DNA of 64,000 nt from an uncultured bacterium (GTDB taxonomy: Bacteria; Patescibacteriota; Minisyncoccia; Phycocordibacterales; UBA6065). Location: the NCBI GenBank assembly GCA_963841935.1, contig CAWJEP010000001.1:141302-205301 (forward strand), in the 5' to 3' direction. The notes under the pieces are model-generated. The model worked only from the letters and a program-made list of their open reading frames with translations, was not told where the DNA came from and did no database searches. Positions 13,838 through 51,418 of this stretch are shown here, piece by piece. The position numbers and the translations under genes are program-made. How positions within the stretch are numbered: the first letter of the stretch is position 1; each line of letters opens with the position of its first letter.

Positions 13838-15945
<2,108 letters not shown>

Positions 15946-16045
15946 CGAAGGAATCGCCGCAGCTTTGAGCGACTATTTTTTGGTCTTTCAAAGCTGTAGC
16001 GAAGAGTACAGCATAACTAAAACTGTCAAGACGATTAGTAAAATT

Positions 16046-16783
16046 ATGAGCACAACCACTGCTCCTGTTGTCACCGACGGTGAACTCGCGACGCTTGCTT
16101 CACGGCAAGTTGAGCTTTTCACGCGTTTTAAGAAAGGGGTTTACGCAAATCCCTCCGAAGTGCTGGACGGTATCCAGCTTCTCATCGAAGGCAAACAGCC
16201 CGAGGTCATCCCGACGGTCGTTTCTTCGGACACGAGTTCGGTCATCTCCGACTGGCAGGACTTCTACAAGAAGTTCTTCGGTCTCAATATCGATTTGTCG
16301 GGAGTCAAAATCCCCGAACACGCCCTCGGTTTCGATCGGTTGATTGTGGTCCCGCAAGGTATCACGCTCAATCAAGTTTGGAAGGTGTGTGCAAGGCAGT
16401 TCAACTGCTGGAAATACACCGACTCTGACCTCGATAGTGCTGTTCCCACGAACAACCGAGACCCAAAGAGTGGCGCCTACGCCATCTGGGTCCGCGATGT
16501 TGTCGAAGCTGACAAGGAGATGAAGAATCTCTCGGCGGACGACCTCAAGGAAAGGACAATCAAGGGGGTCACTCTCCTCGAACGTCTACTTCTTGAGCTC
16601 AAGTATTTCTCGGAGACGGGAAAACACTTGGACATTAGCAACTGGACCCTCTGTTCGGGTTCCCGCCATTCGGGCGGCTGCGTGCCCTGTGTGCGCTGGC
16701 TCGACGGCTGGCTCAAGGTCGACTGGTACTATGTCGGCGGTCGGTACGACGACCTTCGTTCGCGTGTAGCAGTTACGCTTTAA
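16046..16783 (+). CDS. DGR target protein 1 (variable region VR1 at C-terminus; CLec/FGE-like tail)
   Basis: Paralog of the 17468 and 50810 genes (shared N-terminal helix pattern). C-terminal 100 nt pairs with the Asn-rich repeat at 17026-17127 with adenine-biased mismatches. Start could be the TTG at 15965. Confidence 0.55.
   Translation: MSTTTAPVVTDGELATLASRQVELFTRFKKGVYANPSEVLDGIQLLIEGKQPEVIPTVVSSDTSSVISDWQDFYKKFFGLNIDLSGVKIPEHALGFDRLIVVPQGITLNQVWKVCARQFNCWKYTDSDLDSAVPTNNRDPKSGAYAIWVRDVVEADKEMKNLSADDLKERTIKGVTLLERLLLELKYFSETGKHLDISNWTLCSGSRHSGGCVPCVRWLDGWLKVDWYYVGGRYDDLRSRVAVTL
16668..16769 (+). other. Candidate variable region VR1
   Basis: Aligned to 17026-17127: 25 mismatches, 21 where the partner has A. 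Confidence 0.55.
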
Positions 16784-16808
16784 GCTTTCTGCTTTTACAC
16801 TTGGTTTC

Positions 16809-16850
16809 GCGGCCTGCAAGTAAAAACTTGCAGGCCGCTTTTGTTTTTCA
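16809..16850 (+). terminator. Rho-independent terminator after target 1
   Basis: GCGGCCTGCAAG-loop-CTTGCAGGCCGC followed by TTTTGTTTTT. Confidence 0.75.
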
Positions 16851-17025
16851 TAAAATTATTCCGGCTATTAAATTGATCCGCCGATGAGGCGGATAACGAT
16901 TTGCCATAAAAAAGAAACTGCCTGCTTCATCTACACAACGCCTCGTTCGGGGTACAAACGCAGAAAATTTTGACGAAAGATTTTCGGTGACACGGAAGGA
17001 TGAAAGCAGTACACGAGGTTCGCGC

Positions 17026-17341
<316 letters not shown>

Positions 17342-17467
17342 GTGAATTGCTACAGCAGAAAGTGCCGAAAAATTTAGACATTTTCTGCTGTGGCAAAGCT
17401 AAATTTGCGAGCCCAACAGCGGACACTGTTCTTATGAACAAGTCCGTCAGATGAAAGGATAACAACC

Positions 17468-18136
17468 ATGAGCGAATTAATGCTCGATGTTGGTCAGGCG
17501 CAGGAACTCAAACTGGCATTCCGTCGCGAAGGCGATTGGACGAACGAGGATATCAAAGCGCTCACCGAGCGCAAAGGTCTCCTCCGGCAGATTCTCGGGA
17601 TTGTCCGCGGCTTTGCGGAAATCACCGTGAAGAAAATCGGACTCTGGCGACGGTTTCTCGTTGGAGGCATCTCCCGCGACGAACTCATCACCAAGCTCGA
17701 CGAGGTTGGTGTTGCGAACACGGGACTGACATTCCGTGTGAGCGATTACGCCAAGGATCTCATGGCGCAGAAGGCATTCGTCATTTCGAAAGAGAAGATG
17801 GAAGCCGACTTCGTCATCGCGACTCCAAAGGATCTCGGTTTCACTGAGAATCCGACGACGGAGGAGCTCTTCAACGAGAAGAACCTCGCGTTCTACGGTC
17901 TCGAACTCTGTCGTGCCGATGATGGTCCGTCGATTCGGCTGTCCTACACGGATCAGCCGAACAGTGAATGGCTTCCGATAGCCATGAAGCCGATTTGCGG
18001 TTCTGACGGCGTACTGGGGCGTGTTCAACCTCGAGCGGGACGGTTCGGGGCTCTGGCTCTACGGCGACTGCTATGCCTATCCGCAGGGTCGGTGGGATGT
18101 CGGCGGTCGGCTTGTCTTCCGCGCTCGCAAGTTCTA
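17468..18136 (+). CDS. DGR target protein 2 (VR2 at C-terminus; 1-nt length difference puts VR out of frame)
   Basis: Good RBS AAAGGA. Body is in one frame to ...ICGSDG; the VR-encoded tail WGVFNLERDGSGLWLYGDCYAYPQGRWDVGGRLVFRARKF* is in the +1 frame, ending in a CLec/FGE-like GxRLVFRAR. Confidence 0.6.
17993..18130 (+). other. Variable region VR2
   Basis: 138 nt vs TR2 137 nt; about 14 substitutions, every one at a TR adenine (A to G or T); last 38 nt identical apart from one A/G. Confidence 0.8.
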
Positions 18137-18188
18137 AGAACTTGGAAATCAGTGCTTTAGCACTTGAAATCTTGGAACTTAGTTCTTC

Positions 18189-18228
18189 GGTCCCTGTTTC
18201 GCTTCGGCGAGGCAGGGACCTTTTGTTA
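18189..18228 (+). terminator. Rho-independent terminator after target 2
   Basis: GGTCCCTG-loop-CAGGGACC followed by TTTTGTT. Confidence 0.7.
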
Positions 18229-18458
18229 TAATAAAAATGGTAGTAGGCGAATCTGAAAAGGATCAAGGTCTTTTTCTGCCGAATCTAGTATCCATGAAGT
18301 CAGAGTGTCTTGGACCAAGGTTTAAGACAGGGCGCTTCATGCAGACACTTCAAAAAATTGAAGATACTTGGTGCAATTTGTTAGGGCATTACGATGCCGA
18401 ATAATATTCAATCCAGAGAAAATTCAATGGATGGTGGTTTAGATGACTTATTGCACAA

Positions 18459-18595
18459 ATTTGCGATTCTGACGGCAACTGGAACGTGTTCAACCTCAAG
18501 CGGGACGATTCGGAGCTCTGGCTCAACGGCAACTACAATGCCAATCCGCAGGATCGGTGGGATGTCGGCGATCGGCTTGTCTTCCGCGCTCGCAA
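18459..18595 (+). other. Template repeat TR2
   Basis: Non-coding, AAC/AAT-rich, immediately upstream of the avd/RT genes; cognate of VR2. Confidence 0.8.
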
Positions 18596-18601
18596 CCCTC
18601 T

Positions 18602-19015
18602 TCATTTCTCTCCGGATTTTTCCGGAGAGTTTTGTTTTACAATTTGTCCAAGCCATCCGCCAAGCATTTTTCCGGCTCCATCTAAAATTTCTGAAAGAGT
18701 CTCGTATTTTTTGTCGCTTATTGATTTTGTTTCCCATAGAACCATGAGAAGTATTTTTATAGTATCTATTTTTCTCGTCGCAAGTTTAATCCACGGTATT
18801 TTTTCTTCTTTCGATAAAAATGTTGCCGTTACCGTTGCTTCTATTGTTTCGATAAACAATTTATCCAGCCGATTTCCAAGCGAATATTTCTGCGTTTTTA
18901 CTAATTTCTCGTGATACTCGTGCCAGAGTTTATATGCTGATTTAATTTTCTCTACCACTGGCAAAATCGCTCGGGGGGGGGGTAGCATTTGAAGAATGGT
19001 TCGGAGCATTTTCAC
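18602..19015 (-). CDS. avd: Avd-like accessory variability determinant (four-helix bundle, 23S rRNA IVS protein family)
   Basis: KYSLGNRLDKLFIETIEAT... and C-terminal SISDKKYETLSEILDGAGKMLGGWL match the IVS/Avd helix pattern. Probable start is the third Met (about 18988). Confidence 0.6.
   Translation of the reverse strand: MKMLRTILQMLPPPRAILPVVEKIKSAYKLWHEYHEKLVKTQKYSLGNRLDKLFIETIEATVTATFLSKEEKIPWIKLATRKIDTIKILLMVLWETKSISDKKYETLSEILDGAGKMLGGWLGQIVKQNSPEKSGEK
18973..18982. repeat. G10 homopolymer (C10 on the avd coding strand)
   Basis: Ten consecutive G; encodes PPP at avd codons 3-6 and lies 14-23 nt upstream of the RT start codon. Confidence 0.9.
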
Positions 19016-19979
19016 TCATACATACGATGATATCATCTCCGTCGAAAATCTTTTAGCTGCGTGGCGTGAATTTATTCGTGGCAAGAAAAATAAAAAAGAC
19101 GTCGAAGAATTTCAGTTTCGTCTTATGGACAATATTCTCGATTTGCATCTAGATTTAAAAAACAAAACATATACTCACGGCATATATCACGCTTTCAATA
19201 TAAATGATCCTAAACCGAGAAATATTCACAAAGCCACAGTACGAGACAGATTGCTCCATCACGCTATACACAGAGTTTCATATCCATTTTTCGACAAAAC
19301 GTTTATCGCTGATTCATATTCGTGCAGATTAAATAAAGGAACTCATAAAGCAATCAAAAGATTTATTTCTTTCAGTCGAAAGGTTTCAAAAAATAACACA
19401 AAAACGTGTTGGATTTTGAAATGCGATATACGGAAATTCTTTGCGAGTATAGACCATAGGATTCTCATTTCGATTTCGAAGAAATATATTCATAACGGAA
19501 ATATTGTCTGGATTATGGAAAACATAATCGGAAGTTTTGAAACAAAAAATGGTGTCGGACTTCCACTCGGTAATCTGACATCACAACTTTTTGTGAATGT
19601 TTATATGAATGAATTCGACCAATTTATGAAACACAGAATCAAAGCGAAATATTACATTCGATATGCCGATGATTTTGTGACATTGTCGCATGACAAAAAA
19701 TATCTTGAAAATCTGATACCAAAAATTTCTAAATTTCTTTCGGAAAAATTAAGATTATCTCTTCATCCTAATAAAGTCTTCATCAAAACTTTAGCCTCGG
19801 GCGTTGACTTCCTTGGTTGGATACATTTTCCAAATCACCGAGTATTACGGACGGCAACGAAAAAGAGAATGTTCAAAAGAATTTCAGAAAATTCGAAAGA
19901 AGAGACGGTTACTTCATATATTGGAATGCTCAAGTACGGAAATGCTTACATTTTAAAAGAACACATAAAAATGCTATAG
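18996..19979 (+). CDS. DGR reverse transcriptase
   Basis: RT motifs DIRKFFASIDH (motif A), GLPLGNLTSQLFVNVYMNEFD (domain 4 with the DGR-specific [IVL]GxxxSQ), YIRYADDFV (YxDD); 327 aa. Confidence 0.85.
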   Translation: MVRSIFTHTYDDIISVENLLAAWREFIRGKKNKKDVEEFQFRLMDNILDLHLDLKNKTYTHGIYHAFNINDPKPRNIHKATVRDRLLHHAIHRVSYPFFDKTFIADSYSCRLNKGTHKAIKRFISFSRKVSKNNTKTCWILKCDIRKFFASIDHRILISISKKYIHNGNIVWIMENIIGSFETKNGVGLPLGNLTSQLFVNVYMNEFDQFMKHRIKAKYYIRYADDFVTLSHDKKYLENLIPKISKFLSEKLRLSLHPNKVFIKTLASGVDFLGWIHFPNHRVLRTATKKRMFKRISENSKEETVTSYIGMLKYGNAYILKEHIKML

Positions 19980-19986
19980 TCTTTTT

Positions 19987-20280
19987 ATGATAACCAAGGC
20001 AGATATAGAGAAATTGGCGAAATTGTCGAGACTAAAGCTTACCGAAGCCGAAAAGGAAAAATACGCCAAAGATATGGATAATATTCTCTCTTACATCGCG
20101 CAGATTGATTCCGTCGCGCCCGCCTCCGCCAAGGCTACGGCGGGTTCGGCAAAAGATTTGCCGAAAAATGTTATGCGCTCGGACGACACTCCGCACGAGT
20201 CGGGAATTTTTACCGACGCGCTTTTGAAACTTTCCCCGAGAAGCGAAAGCGGGCGAGTAAAAGTCAAAAAAATCCTTTAA
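19987..20280 (+). CDS. gatC: Asp/Glu-tRNA amidotransferase subunit C
   Basis: IEKLAKLSRLKLTEAEKEKYAKDMDNILSYIAQID; 97 aa; immediately precedes gatA. Confidence 0.8.
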   Translation: MITKADIEKLAKLSRLKLTEAEKEKYAKDMDNILSYIAQIDSVAPASAKATAGSAKDLPKNVMRSDDTPHESGIFTDALLKLSPRSESGRVKVKKIL

Positions 20281-44036: not shown

Positions 44037-45249
44037 ATCGCAAAGCTTCTATCGGATTCATCATGGCCGCCCTGCGCGCCGGATAGTAACCAAAGACTAT
44101 TCCTATGATTGCCGAGACGCCGAAAGCCAAAATTACGGAGACGGGCGAAACAGTCGTGGCGATAATGCCGAAATAAGTGATGCCGAAACAAATTCCCCAG
44201 CCCAAAGCGATTCCTATGCAGCCGCCAATGACGGTAAGGGCTATCGATTCCATGAGAAATTGGAGCGTAATGTCTTTTTCTTGAGCTCCGATGGCTTTGC
44301 GCAGGCCGATCTCGCGAGTGCGCTCCGTTACCGTCGTGAGCATCATGTTCATTATACCAATGCCTCCGACGATAAGCGATATTCCCGCGACCGCGCCTAA
44401 AAGTAAAGTAAAAGTGTTTGTGACGCTCGAAGCCGTGGCCAGAATGTCCGCCTGATTGAGAATGCTAAAGTCGGGACTTGCCGCCGAGACGTTGTGGCGG
44501 GTCAAAAGCAAATTCGTGATGTCATTTTGGACCTGAGTCATTACTCCAGAGTTTGCCGCTTGGACGTCTATGGTGGTCAGATAAGGGTTGCCGGCGAGAT
44601 ATTGCGTGGCGGTCGATACCGGAATAAAAACTTCGTCATCCTGACTGCCGAAAGAAGTGCCGCCTTTAGCTACCGTCTCGCCGATAATGGTAAACTCGAT
44701 GTTTTTTATGCGGATGATTTGACCGACGGGGTCGGTGCCGGTGGCCAAAAGGTCGTTTGCGACCGTGGGACCGACGATGGCGACTTTATTTACCGACGCG
44801 ATGTCCTGGTCGGAAATGAAATTGCCCTCGGAAATGCTCACGTTTCTAACCGAAGGGTAGTTGGAACTTACTCCGTCCACGGTGACGTTTGTATTCGTGC
44901 CTTTTGCCGTTACTTGGTCTCTGCCGGAAACCTCCGATGTAACTGCGGTCACGTTGTTCACTTGCGAGGCGATGGCGTCTGCGTCGCCTTGAATGAGAGA
45001 CTGCGCCGTGCCGCGGCCCGTGGACACGCCGTAGCCGATAGTTCTTTGCGCGCCGGGAGTAATTTCCAAGAGATTGCTCCCGATGCTTTGAATGGAAGAA
45101 TTTATGCTTGATTGGGCGCCATTGCCGATCGACACCATGGCGATGACGGAGGAAATGCCGATGACGATGCCGAGCATCGTGAGTCCCGAACGGACTTTGT
45201 TCGCCCTAAGCGCCGTTGATGTTTCTTCTAAAATATCTTTTGTCGTCAT
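44029..45249 (-). CDS. MacB/FtsX-type ABC permease
   Basis: N-terminal TM, large periplasmic domain, C-terminal FtsX-like four-TM bundle. Confidence 0.75.
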   Translation of the reverse strand: MTTKDILEETSTALRANKVRSGLTMLGIVIGISSVIAMVSIGNGAQSSINSSIQSIGSNLLEITPGAQRTIGYGVSTGRGTAQSLIQGDADAIASQVNNVTAVTSEVSGRDQVTAKGTNTNVTVDGVSSNYPSVRNVSISEGNFISDQDIASVNKVAIVGPTVANDLLATGTDPVGQIIRIKNIEFTIIGETVAKGGTSFGSQDDEVFIPVSTATQYLAGNPYLTTIDVQAANSGVMTQVQNDITNLLLTRHNVSAASPDFSILNQADILATASSVTNTFTLLLGAVAGISLIVGGIGIMNMMLTTVTERTREIGLRKAIGAQEKDITLQFLMESIALTVIGGCIGIALGWGICFGITYFGIIATTVSPVSVILAFGVSAIIGIVFGYYPARRAAMMNPIEALRYE

Positions 45250-45961
45250 GATGGTATGCTGTGCCGAGCTTTTCTTTGCGCGTGAGTCCCGCTATCGCTC
45301 ACTATGAGTCCGTCGCGAATATGAATGATGCGCGCGGCATGTTCCGCAACGTCGAGTTCGTGGGTAATGAGGACGATGGTGCGTCCTTCAATTTCGTTCA
45401 GGCGTTGAAAAGTGCCTAGAACGATTTCCCCGGTCTTGCTATCGAGATTTCCCGTTGGCTCATCGGCGAGAATGAGTGTCGGGTTGTTGACGAGAGCGCG
45501 GGCGATAGCCACACGCTGTATTTGTCCGCCGGAAAGTTGGTTTGAAAGATGCATAAAGTGCGTCTCGTCGAGGCCGGCGGCTTTTAAGGCGTCCGTGGCT
45601 CGAACAATTCTTTCTTCGTGCGGTACTCCGGCGTAAACCAAAGGAAGCATGACGTTTCGAAGGACGGTGGTTCGGGCAGGAGATTGAAAGCTTGGAAGAC
45701 GAAACCGATTTTATCTTTCCTTATTTCCGCGAGTTCGTCGTCTTTGAGGGTTGATACGTCTTTTCCGTCGAGAAGGTAAGTTCCGGAAGTCGGCGTGTCG
45801 AGGCATCCCAGAATGTGCATCAACGTTGATTTGCCGGAACCGGACGGTCCCATAATCGCTAGAAACTCGCCATCTCTTATGGTAAAGGAAACTCCCTTCA
45901 ACGCTTGGAAACCGCCGTCGGCGCTCTTATAGGTCTTTGTTACGTCGTGGACCTCGATCAT
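45246..45961 (-). pseudogene. MacB/LolD-type ABC ATPase with -1 frameshift at an A3 run (plus 45655-45657)
   Basis: Upstream frame gives MIEVHDVTKTYKS...GPSGSGKST...FQAFNLLPEPPSFE; the other frame continues [11 protein letters not shown]...[14 protein letters not shown]...ADEPTGNLD. The junction sequence GAAACGTCATG would read ENVM with one extra A. Confidence 0.75.
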
Positions 45962-45962
45962 A

Positions 45963-47633
45963 TTATGGAATTCTAACAGCCCCGGCTCCGCCGCCACCGC
46001 CGCGCGCTCCTCCGCCGGCCGCGCCAAAAATACTTGGCGCGGCTAAGGTGGAAGCTACCGGTGTAGCTCCCGCGGAAGCCGTCGTTTTCGTTATCACTTG
46101 GTCGCCTTGAGAAAGTCCGGAAAGAATTTCCGTGACCGTGCTGTTTGAAACTCCGACAATTACGGGAACGTTTTTCGGCCCCGTCGAAGACGTAACTCCA
46201 GCCGCCGCTTGCGCGGCGGATACTTTTTGATTAAGTTCCTGAACGTAAGAAACCGAGCCCTGAGTTTTGATTGCCGAGTTTGGCACAGTCAGGACATTGC
46301 TCTCGACGTCCGTGACTATCGAAGCGTTGACGCTCATGCCCGGTTTTATTCTGACGTCATCCGTGTCTAGGGTGATGGTAATAGTGTAGCTCACGACGCC
46401 GGAACTTACCGTGCCGATGACGGAGACATCACTCACGTGTCCGGCGATTGATAGATTGTTTATGGCGTCGAAAGTAAGCGTGGCTTTGTCTCCGACCTCC
46501 ACCTTGGCCGCGTCTATTTCGTTTAGAAGAATCGTGGCGATTTTTTGTTTGGATACTATCGTGCCTATGGTTTCGCCGCTTGATATCGTATTCGTGGGTT
46601 CCACGGCGAGAGACAATATTCCGTCTATTGGAGCGTAAATAAAGTAATCGTTGTAAGTTTCTTCCGCGGCCTGAATGGAAAGTTCTTGCGATTGAATGTC
46701 CAACGAATCGGCTCCGGAGATTAAAGCTTCCAAGGTATTATTCGCTTGGGTGATACCATTCTCGTCTCCGAGAAGGGCGGTAACATAACCACTGACTTGA
46801 GTTGACCATGTATCAAGATTGTCGAGAGCGGTCGTCGCCTGACTTTGAGCGGAAGAAGGCGTGTTGGCTTCTACGAATTCAGCCGTTGTCCTTTCGTCTT
46901 TGATCGCTTGAGCGACTGCCTGTACCGTAGTGTAAGTCGAAGCGAGAAGAGATTCGATTGACGCGGTGGCGCTTTGTCTTGTCAAAGTCGAATAAAGCGC
47001 CACGCTAGATTGATAATCGGCATCGGCCGTCGCGTCACTTGCCAAAGCTTCGTTACGTAGAGATTCAGCCGTCATATTGAAATATTGGCTGTCTGAATCG
47101 CTGAGATATTGACCTTGTTTGTTGAGCATACCGTCTATGCCTGTAATGACTGTCGGCAAATTTATAAAAGTGGTAACCAAATCGTTCCAAGCCGAATTAT
47201 AACTCGATACCACATTGTTCTGGTCGGCCACGAGGGTCGTCGTTGCCGGCGCTTCTTCAAGTTTCGCCAAGGATATTTCCGCGCTTTGAAGCGAACGCGC
47301 CGCGTCGGTATTGTCTATGGTAGCGAGAAGTTGGCCTTGCGTCACTTCCTGTCCGTCTGTCACGGGAAGCGATGTCAGCGCTCCGGAGACTTTGCTTGCC
47401 ACGGCGACTTGCTCGTTTGCCGATATTTGTCCGCTTCCGGTGACCGTGGTTATGATTGTGCTGGAAGCGACACTGGATAGAGTATATAAAGTCGCCTGAC
47501 TGCCGGTTTGAGCGGTTTCGACGGCTTTGTATCCTCCGGCGACTATCGCGGCGGCTATCAAAACCGAAATTATCTTGTGTCCGAGAGCGTAGGTTTTTAA
47601 TTTTCCCGCTGTATCAGAAATTTTTTTATTCAT
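45963..47633 (-). CDS. HlyD/MacA-type periplasmic adaptor with Gly-rich C-terminal tail
   Basis: TM anchor, long coiled-coil, barrel domains; C-terminus GGGARGGGGGAGAV. Confidence 0.7.
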   Translation of the reverse strand: MNKKISDTAGKLKTYALGHKIISVLIAAAIVAGGYKAVETAQTGSQATLYTLSSVASSTIITTVTGSGQISANEQVAVASKVSGALTSLPVTDGQEVTQGQLLATIDNTDAARSLQSAEISLAKLEEAPATTTLVADQNNVVSSYNSAWNDLVTTFINLPTVITGIDGMLNKQGQYLSDSDSQYFNMTAESLRNEALASDATADADYQSSVALYSTLTRQSATASIESLLASTYTTVQAVAQAIKDERTTAEFVEANTPSSAQSQATTALDNLDTWSTQVSGYVTALLGDENGITQANNTLEALISGADSLDIQSQELSIQAAEETYNDYFIYAPIDGILSLAVEPTNTISSGETIGTIVSKQKIATILLNEIDAAKVEVGDKATLTFDAINNLSIAGHVSDVSVIGTVSSGVVSYTITITLDTDDVRIKPGMSVNASIVTDVESNVLTVPNSAIKTQGSVSYVQELNQKVSAAQAAAGVTSSTGPKNVPVIVGVSNSTVTEILSGLSQGDQVITKTTASAGATPVASTLAAPSIFGAAGGGARGGGGGAGAVRIP

Positions 47634-50671: not shown

Positions 50672-50697
50672 GCTTATTTTTCAGTATTTTTTGACCT

Positions 50698-50727
50698 ATT
50701 GACAAAATAGCCATATTTGGTATATAA
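50698..50727 (+). promoter_or_regulatory. Consensus sigma70 promoter copy 3 (TTGACA-N18-TATAAT)
   Basis: Same 60-bp module (CTATTGACAAAATAGCCATATTTGGTATATAAT ... ATAGAACATTGAAA) as 15880 and 17277. Confidence 0.6.
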
Positions 50728-50809
50728 TTTGGAGTGAATAGAACATTGAAAAATCTTGCATTCCGCAAGACCTCTCTCGTTCGTTCGATAAAAAAAAGGA
50801 GATGACGCC

Positions 50810-51418
50810 ATGAATAACATCATGTCCCCATCAGTTAGCGAAATCACAGCTGGTCAGATTGGCAAGCTTCAGGAAATCCTCGCTGCGCGTTTGCGTAAGT
50901 CAGGACTCCAGAGCGACGCTGTCCAACAGGTTCTCGAAAATCAAGGTGACGAAGTTGCCGACGAGATGGTCGGCGCCGTCCGTCGTCGTGTCGAAGCGGT
51001 CAGTAATATGATCGTTCGCCGTGTCACGGTCAACCGCTCTCGTTCTCCGCGCAATATGATCGCGGCGACAAAGAGAGCCGAGTATCTCGACAATAGCGTG
51101 GTGAAGACGATGCCGAGAAACGAGGGCGACGAAGTGGATGTATTCTTCTTCAAGGTCGGCCGGGATGTTCCCGTTGCCGACTTGGCGAAGGAGTATGAAC
51201 TCCGCGGCCTTGTGCCCGATCATTACGCCCAAGGCGCGGTGAACGAGGTCGATCCAGCATTTGCCGCCGAGCATCCGAACAGCACCCAGTGGCAGGACGA
51301 GGACGGCAACTTCTGCTATCTCACGTTCTTCAGGTGGGACGGCAAGCGCTACGTGGACTGCCGCCGCTACAACGCCGGTTGGCGCGTCCACTGGTGGTTT
51401 GCGGGGGTTCGCAAGTAA
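50810..51418 (+). CDS. Paralog of the DGR target family (possible remote/dormant target)
   Basis: Same promoter and 5'UTR element; RBS AAAGGAG; N-terminal helix pattern like targets 1 and 2; C-terminus ...GWRVHWWFAGVRK*; the 3' end TCGCAAGTAAGAACTAGG resembles the target-2 3' flank. Confidence 0.55.
   Translation: MNNIMSPSVSEITAGQIGKLQEILAARLRKSGLQSDAVQQVLENQGDEVADEMVGAVRRRVEAVSNMIVRRVTVNRSRSPRNMIAATKRAEYLDNSVVKTMPRNEGDEVDVFFFKVGRDVPVADLAKEYELRGLVPDHYAQGAVNEVDPAFAAEHPNSTQWQDEDGNFCYLTFFRWDGKRYVDCRRYNAGWRVHWWFAGVRK

Follow-up and report, generated by a model that had tools for sequence, protein, structure and literature searches.

The window, as the whole stretch of 64 kb (64,000 nucleotides) analysed here is called, contains at positions 17286-19979 a complete diversity-generating retroelement (DGR), a system for targeted hypermutation, of a CPR/Patescibacteria-type bacterium, which comprises a promoter, target gene 2 with its variable region VR2, the template region TR2, a convergent avd gene and a reverse transcriptase (RT) gene. 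In this DGR the variable region is one nucleotide longer than its template, and the extra base throws the conserved C-terminal tail of the target protein out of frame. The explanation slightly favoured, with an about even chance of being correct, is that the consensus is in error at a position where G and T were mixed; a genuine insertion made during homing is a close rival. Nothing points to a new mechanism: the base is either an error of the record that arose in assembly or a known by-product of DGR reverse transcription, present as a short-lived faulty copy.

Direct reading and global alignment of VR2 (17993-18130, + strand, 138 nt) with TR2 (18459-18595, + strand, 137 nt) confirmed the difference in length claimed in the original prediction, with one gap only. 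A repeat search yielded an ungapped pair of 118 nt, formed by VR2 18013-18130 and TR2 18478-18595. At the gap, TR2 reads GGCAACTGGAACGTG (18474-18488, 15 nt) and VR2 reads GGCGTACTGGGGCGTG (18008-18023, 16 nt); written in codons, GGC-AAC-TGG-AAC-GTG in TR2 becomes GGC-GTAC-TGG-GGC-GTG in VR2. Likewise, VR2 has GTACTGGGGC (10 nt) between GACGGC (18004-18009) and GTGTTCAAC (18020-18028), where the spacing at template length is 9 nt. The lesion can be placed at 18011-18012 (+ strand), where GT replaces a single template adenine (TR 18477, the first A of the first AAC codon) and one of the two bases is surplus. Without the G the codon is TAC (Tyr, as in the sister cassette L002 described below), and without the T it is GAC (Asp). 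Apart from this site, VR2 differs from TR2 at 14 positions, and all 14 are TR adenines (29 A in 137 nt; hypergeometric P ~1.6e-11); no difference at any other base was found over the aligned 137/138 nt. Because non-adenine differences are absent, VR2 and TR2 are a true TR/VR pair of a DGR, and a chance repeat is excluded.

The body of target gene 2 (MSELMLDVGQ...PICGSDG; 17468-18010, + strand) is read in its original frame up to the extra base, where it ends. The corresponding ORF (17468-18160, 230 aa) continues after ...EWLPIAMKPICGSDG with a nonsense tail, VLGRVQPRAGRFG...KSVL*, of 49 out-of-frame residues, the last part of which is a run-on of the shifted body frame (18138-18160, + strand) with a stop of its own at 18158-18160. 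The conserved C-terminal tail, (Y)WGVFNLERDGSGLWLYGDCYAYPQGRWDVGGRLVFRARKF*, is encoded at 18013-18137 (+ strand, stop codon at 18135-18137) in the +1 frame only, and it aligns with the C-termini of all relatives. Upstream, this +1 frame runs into a TGA (17985-17987), and it contains no start codon until the GTG at 18021. Translation of the deposited sequence shows that the frame is lost 42 codons ahead of the normal stop. The ORF reading therefore agrees with what had been claimed beforehand, namely that the body runs in one frame to ...ICGSDG and that the WGVFNL...RARKF* tail is found in the +1 frame only. The location given earlier for the variable tail was also correct, except that its end has to be moved from 18136 to 18137, where the stop codon ends. 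Furthermore, the original prediction had been made dependent on conservation of the downstream frame, and the +1-frame tail is indeed the conserved one.

The AAC-rich frame of TR2 (CDSDGNWNVFNLKRDDSELWLNGNYNANPQDRWDVGDRLVFRARNP) coincides with the body frame ahead of the extra base and with the tail frame past it, and the length difference is thus an insertion in VR2. A deletion in TR2 was considered as well and rejected, because TR2 has a single AAC-rich frame throughout, is identical in L002, and shares the GGCAACTGGAACGTG spacing with the TRs of the relatives. A compensating indel elsewhere in target gene 2 was likewise rejected; in comparison to the intact L002 allele, the single indel is the only one.

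The normal product of target gene 2 is, as predicted from its sequence and that of its relatives, a single-frame protein of about 220 aa with a C-terminal C-type-lectin-like domain that carries the VR. In a protein search, five relatives (P0001-P0005, 213-237 aa, 50-95% identity over the full length) covered 98-99% of the repaired protein in one frame. Body and tail lie in one frame at eight related loci in genomes and metagenomes, and every relative found has a single frame for both. Five of five TR-bearing loci (L002, L004, L007, L008 and L010) have VR and TR cores of equal length; this equality, by which homing preserves the reading frame, is the one DGR feature clearly missing in the window with its 138 versus 137 nt. 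The intact form of target 2 folds as a C-type-lectin-like domain and the tail belongs to this fold, so that the window does show the DGR feature of a VR at the C-terminus of a C-type-lectin-fold target protein. The relatives originate from MAGs of Paceibacterota, Liptonbacteria and Parcubacteria and from metagenomes of the Hainich aquifer; a protein-guided scan of JGI metagenomes returned only 44-53% relatives, again from the Hainich aquifer.

Two further observations concern this protein family. In L005, a 50%-identical relative from the Hainich aquifer with a coverage of 2, an in-frame TAG (1256-1258) is located directly 5' of the VR, where the replicate L004 reads TCG. Here, the target-2 family seems to have a second null allele, at the edge of the VR, unless the low coverage has caused an error. 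In addition, the N-terminal ~50 residues of target 2 (17468-17620; MLDVGQAxELKLAFRREGDWTNEDIKAL...) occur with 56-80% identity in about two dozen otherwise unrelated CPR proteins of ~200 aa, and the two of these proteins that were aligned (P0007 and P0009) possess VR-like C-termini. The N-terminus looks like a common module on different DGR-type targets.

The comparison with the relatives also bears on the idea that the shift is decoded or intended, either by a programmed +1 frameshift or because the cell actually makes the 230-aa protein with its alternative tail. The shifted frame is open through the whole VR to 18160, as a coding function of the alternative tail would require, though an open frame is expected for an A-poor, GC-rich stretch. 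The alternative tail is present in no relative, and the out-of-frame peptide, when used as a query, matched nothing and revealed no other frameshifted alleles. All relatives and the sister cassette encode the conserved tail in frame, and the extra base is absent from L002, which is 99.8% identical. Moreover, the permissive interval 17988-18011 contains neither a slippery or stop-codon-type +1 motif nor a homopolymer. A decoded or intended shift is thus hardly credible.

The 230-aa out-of-frame product is stored as P0031 in public collections (NCBI, ENA; 226,187-nt contig), and the extra base is therefore present in the deposited record. A second assembly of VR2 was not found. Exact-protein look-ups with the RT, avd, the 230-aa product, P0031, gatC, gatA and target 1 gave a Logan contig of 1,430 nt (L001/L011) as the sole match, which stops inside TR2 before VR2, and an exact DNA pattern scan of the GTDB species genomes gave no match.

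The DGR cassette is located between ligA and gatCA, and the flanking genes in the window are ligA, gatC, gatA, tRNAs, a release factor, ftsE and ftsX. Target gene 2 is preceded by a putative promoter of the sigma-70 type (17286-17315, + strand), which matches the consensus TTGACA-18 nt-TATAAT at 12/12 positions. A 42-nt element with this promoter in perfect or near-perfect form is present in three copies (15877-15918, 17274-17315 and 50687-50728), upstream of target 1, of target 2 and of an ORF at 50810. At the other end of the gene, a terminator-like hairpin was found at 18189-18220 (+ strand), and another one (18608-18629, + strand) is located just past TR2, where the convergent avd gene ends.

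VR2 and TR2 are identical up to ..CGCTCGCAA and divergent beyond. Exactly at this end of the VR/TR homology, a small hairpin is located at 18128-18144 (+ strand), with a 7-bp stem (CAAGTTC/GAACTTG) and a loop that contains the stop codon (z = -2.6 in a DNA fold of 18125-18190). It may serve as the target-site hairpin of the DGR, a role suggested by the target-recognition work on BPP-1 (PMC3240598).

The avd accessory gene (18602-18988, - strand) encodes 128 aa if the ATG at 18988 is the start, and the conserved domain begins at residue 9. Judged by its profile matches, the homology to Avd appears clear, though the scores for NF033474 (E 2.3e-16, 60 bits, profile positions 1-103/104, curated cutoff 80) and PF22296 (38 bits, cutoff 40) are below the curated thresholds. 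The RT gene (18996-19979, + strand) is intact and encodes 327 aa. An RT of the DGR type adjoining the TR is a feature of DGRs, and it is present here according to both the profile match (RVT_1, 80.5 bits, cutoff 29.6) and the motifs LGNLTSQ and YADD, which were read directly; the SQ dipeptide has been named as DGR-specific (PMC3521204). A run of ten G (G10, 18973-18982), 14 nt from the RT start, falls into the first codons of avd (MLPPPR..., - strand); it is the sole homopolymer >8 in the 64 kb. L002 has G9 at this site, by which the ATG of avd is placed out of frame, and the Logan contig L001 has G10. The tract could be phase-variable, or G9 could be a homopolymer miscall in L002.

Among known systems, the DGR of Bordetella phage BPP-1 (mtd VR / TR / avd / brt) shows the same differences exclusively at TR adenines. 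As in the window, the gene with the VR at its 3' end encodes a protein with a C-type-lectin fold and is accompanied by genes of an Avd-family protein and of an RT with SQ and YxDD motifs; VR and TR are the same over a GC-rich stretch on their 3' side, then diverge, and a small hairpin follows. TvpA of Treponema denticola and other FGE/CLec-type DGR variable proteins are also among the closest known systems. DGRs of CPR bacteria and DPANN archaea, reportedly described by Paul et al. in 2017 in Nature Microbiology, resemble the window in their small-genome, groundwater-type hosts, in their small CLec-type targets and in the use of one RT for more than one target. From these, the DGR in the window does not differ in kind; it is set apart only by the additional base in VR2 and by its near-identity to the cassette of a distant genome.

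This second cassette is found on L002 (ENA ERZ25039472, contig_34136, 16.9 kb), which encodes P0001 and is syntenic with the window (pilin genes, ligA, target, avd, RT, gatC, gatA). Window positions 17323-20030 correspond to L002 9106-11811 and show 5 differences in ~2,570 nt outside VR2 (99.8% identity); TR2 is identical and the body of target gene 2 is 100% identical at the DNA level. In VR2, 16 substitution positions and one indel were counted (GTAC in the window, TAC in L002, which is in frame), and all 16 positions are TR adenines on the window side. Recent diversification, as is typical for a DGR, is thus evident. Because cassettes this similar differ at 16 positions of the VR, the DGR was recently active and heterogeneity of the population is plausible. 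Since, in addition, the body is identical to that of the intact L002 allele and VR2 has no non-adenine change, the lesion must be very recent, confined to the VR and later than the split of the two cassettes.

The shared cassette consists of target 2, TR2, avd, RT and the first 44 nt of gatC. Outside it, identity between the window and L002 drops to 71-76% in the syntenic flanks, except right beside the cassette, where it is 82-93%. Judging from this pattern, the arrangement looks like a recent lateral exchange of the cassette between two distantly related CPR genomes by homologous recombination between the conserved ligA and gatC flanks. L002 also contains broken genes of its own: a 1-nt deletion (8855 region) shifts the BRCT domain of ligA into another frame, T2SSF is broken into pieces of 292 and 71 aa, and the release factor into a PCRF and an RF-1 part (regions 1327-2365, 15028-15898). 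These several broken genes point to a noisy assembly, though the DGR target on L002 is intact.

The only other exact copy of RT and avd is that on the Logan contig L001 (ERR11630400), which equals window 18566-19995 with a 100% match over 1,430 nt, including G10. It starts inside TR2 and ends in gatC, 35 nt before the window and L002 diverge. These ends would fit the output of a graph assembler if several genomic backgrounds in the sample share the cassette, which is speculative.

Beside target gene 2, the window contains a second target with its own template. Target gene 1 (16046-16783, + strand) carries VR1 at 16658-16778, and TR1 (17017-17137, + strand) is the template for VR1. The two regions differ at 29 positions, 22 of which are TR adenines and 7 other bases. 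This first module may be older, and it may be decaying or served by a different RT. It is bracketed by a 201-nt direct repeat with 95% identity (15742-15942 and 17139-17339), which comprises the 3' end of ligA and the promoter-bearing intergenic region. The bracketed segment (15943-17138), that is target gene 1 with TR1, is absent from L002; TR1 directly adjoins the second repeat copy, and the module has no RT of its own.

An inactivation of target 2 long ago, in a decaying and by now dead element, would fit the rearranged locus with such a repeat-flanked module, the disrupted ligA (see below) and the non-adenine differences in VR1/TR1. The target 2 cassette itself has a different appearance. 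VR2 is free of non-adenine changes, an intact allele has exactly the same body (100% identity), the cassette is 99.8% identical to that of L002, the RT is of full length with its catalytic motifs, avd, promoter and terminators are intact, and the 16 VR differences between the cassettes indicate recent activity. An old pseudogene is therefore very unlikely, and the suggestion that target 2 is a pseudogene finds no support if a long-decaying gene is meant by it. The two other origins proposed in the original prediction, an off-variant from mutagenic homing and a chimeric consensus over a heterogeneous VR population, hold up as the leading ones.

For the consensus artefact, the following course of events is proposed. 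The RT reverse-transcribes the RNA of TR2 inaccurately at adenines, and VR2 is replaced by the resulting cDNA. Within the cell population, the adenine at the lesion would thereby become G in some cells and T, the state seen in L002, in others. An assembler that collapses this population could then write both G and T. The frameshift need exist in no single cell in this case, and the 230-aa product in the databases would be an artefact of annotation.

Several observations favour this course. The single-frame form is the norm, and L002 reads TAC at the site. The lesion is located exactly at a hypervariable adenine, and the rest of target gene 2 is pristine, with its 12/12 promoter, its terminator and a VR without non-adenine changes. 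The extra base copies neither of its neighbours (C-G-T-A), unlike the result of polymerase slippage, and would fit an overlay of A-to-G and A-to-T changes. A random indel would fall into the 138-nt VR in only ~0.2% of events, which ties the lesion to the VR, through either the RT or the heterogeneity of the population. Finally, two more conserved genes in the 64 kb, ligA and the gene of an ABC ATPase, carry lesions of the indel type.

In the first of these genes, ligA (13844-15900), an insertion of 32 nt (14486-14517) breaks the reading frame into two ORFs. The inserted sequence repeats 14520-14551 imperfectly, lacking one nucleotide at each of two places and having G for A at a third, and the rest of ligA is well conserved in comparison to L002. 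The gene is normally essential; together with the good conservation of its remainder, this makes the lesion hard to explain as a viable mutation. The insertion looks like an assembly stutter or else like an odd error-prone duplication. An alternative genetic code was rejected as an explanation of the split, because the break consists of the 32-nt insertion and a change of frame, with no in-frame stop. The second gene, encoding the ABC ATPase (45246-46027, - strand), appears as two overlapping ORFs that match Pfam ABC_tran at positions 1-74 and 86-136; it is split by a 1-nt deletion near 45670, in ...LLPE|TVLRNVMLPL. The remaining gene junctions checked in the window are clean.

Long-read polishers can write a mixed SNP as an insertion. 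No paper documenting this behaviour was found, and the literature supports the general point only, namely that collapsed-strain Nanopore assemblies carry frameshifting indels. Against an artefact it has to be considered that a short-read assembly based on a de Bruijn (k-mer) graph cannot write two alleles next to each other; with such a source, the base would be real. The 100% match to L001 including G10 shows that the window is accurate at one hard-to-call spot, and a doubled base occurs at only 1 of the 14 variable sites. Furthermore, single-base indels do arise from DGR reverse transcription (0.1%), and they are documented for the cDNA of BPP-1 (PMC6182149).

The latter observation leads to the close rival of the consensus artefact, a null allele that is real, very recent and a product of the DGR. 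According to this explanation, RT-Avd added one nucleotide while misincorporating at the first AAC adenine, and the resulting cDNA was installed in VR2; the dominant lineage in the sample would then make a truncated, misfolded target protein. The extra base falls exactly on a TR adenine that is mutated and belongs to an AAC codon, and a model of template slippage for bRT at adenines, with in/dels in AAC repeats, has been discussed (PMC12875486). The recent date of the lesion, in a VR2 without non-adenine changes and with a body identical to the L002 allele, and the agreement of the window with the independent L001 over 1,430 nt are also in line with a real base. However, the inserted base repeats no neighbour, as simple slippage would have it, the majority genotype in the sample would have to be null, and the two other frameshifted conserved genes, including ligA, point to sequence errors. 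A null allele made by the DGR thus has a considerable chance of being correct, albeit one short of even. In surveys of DGRs, frameshifts are mentioned only in RT genes in one case (PMC3521204), and VR indels are not addressed in another (PMC8144416).

A real frameshift could be reversed. Position 18000, upstream of the lesion, is mutated, and to different bases in the window and in L002. Homing tracts would thus extend past the lesion, and a new cDNA could overwrite the frameshift. With TR2, avd, RT and the 3' end of the VR intact, the allele would then be a transient, self-healing off state. The outcome would be the same as in phase-variable contingency genes, that is, a reversible on/off switch of a surface or ligand-binding protein by a length change of 1 nt. 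Unlike those genes, which depend on slipped-strand events in repeats, the site contains no repeat tract, and reversal would occur through replacement of the whole VR by new cDNA.

The main value of the finding is one of caution, since the deposited contig, which derives from a metagenome, is one base off frame in a hypervariable DGR target. Public collections hold the 230-aa P0031 with a nonsense C-terminus in place of the true lectin-fold protein of ~220 aa. Such cases will be misjudged by surveys in which DGR targets are scored as intact or decayed, and by searches for binding domains encoded in VRs. A real base would provide a natural example of the indel by-products of DGR reverse transcription seen in vitro and, at the same time, of a null allele that the element can repair. 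The cassette shared by two genomes with flanks of 71-76% identity is a more interesting context than the frameshift. It is improbable, though conceivable, that the additional base is real and that DGR-made frameshifts serve as a resettable OFF state, from which the next homing event restores the ON state with a new specificity. Were this so, the diversifier itself could be under a second switch, provided by the G10/G9 tract at the start of avd, and a module that regulates its own diversification would spread as the cassette moves between distant CPR genomes at the ligA-gatC site.
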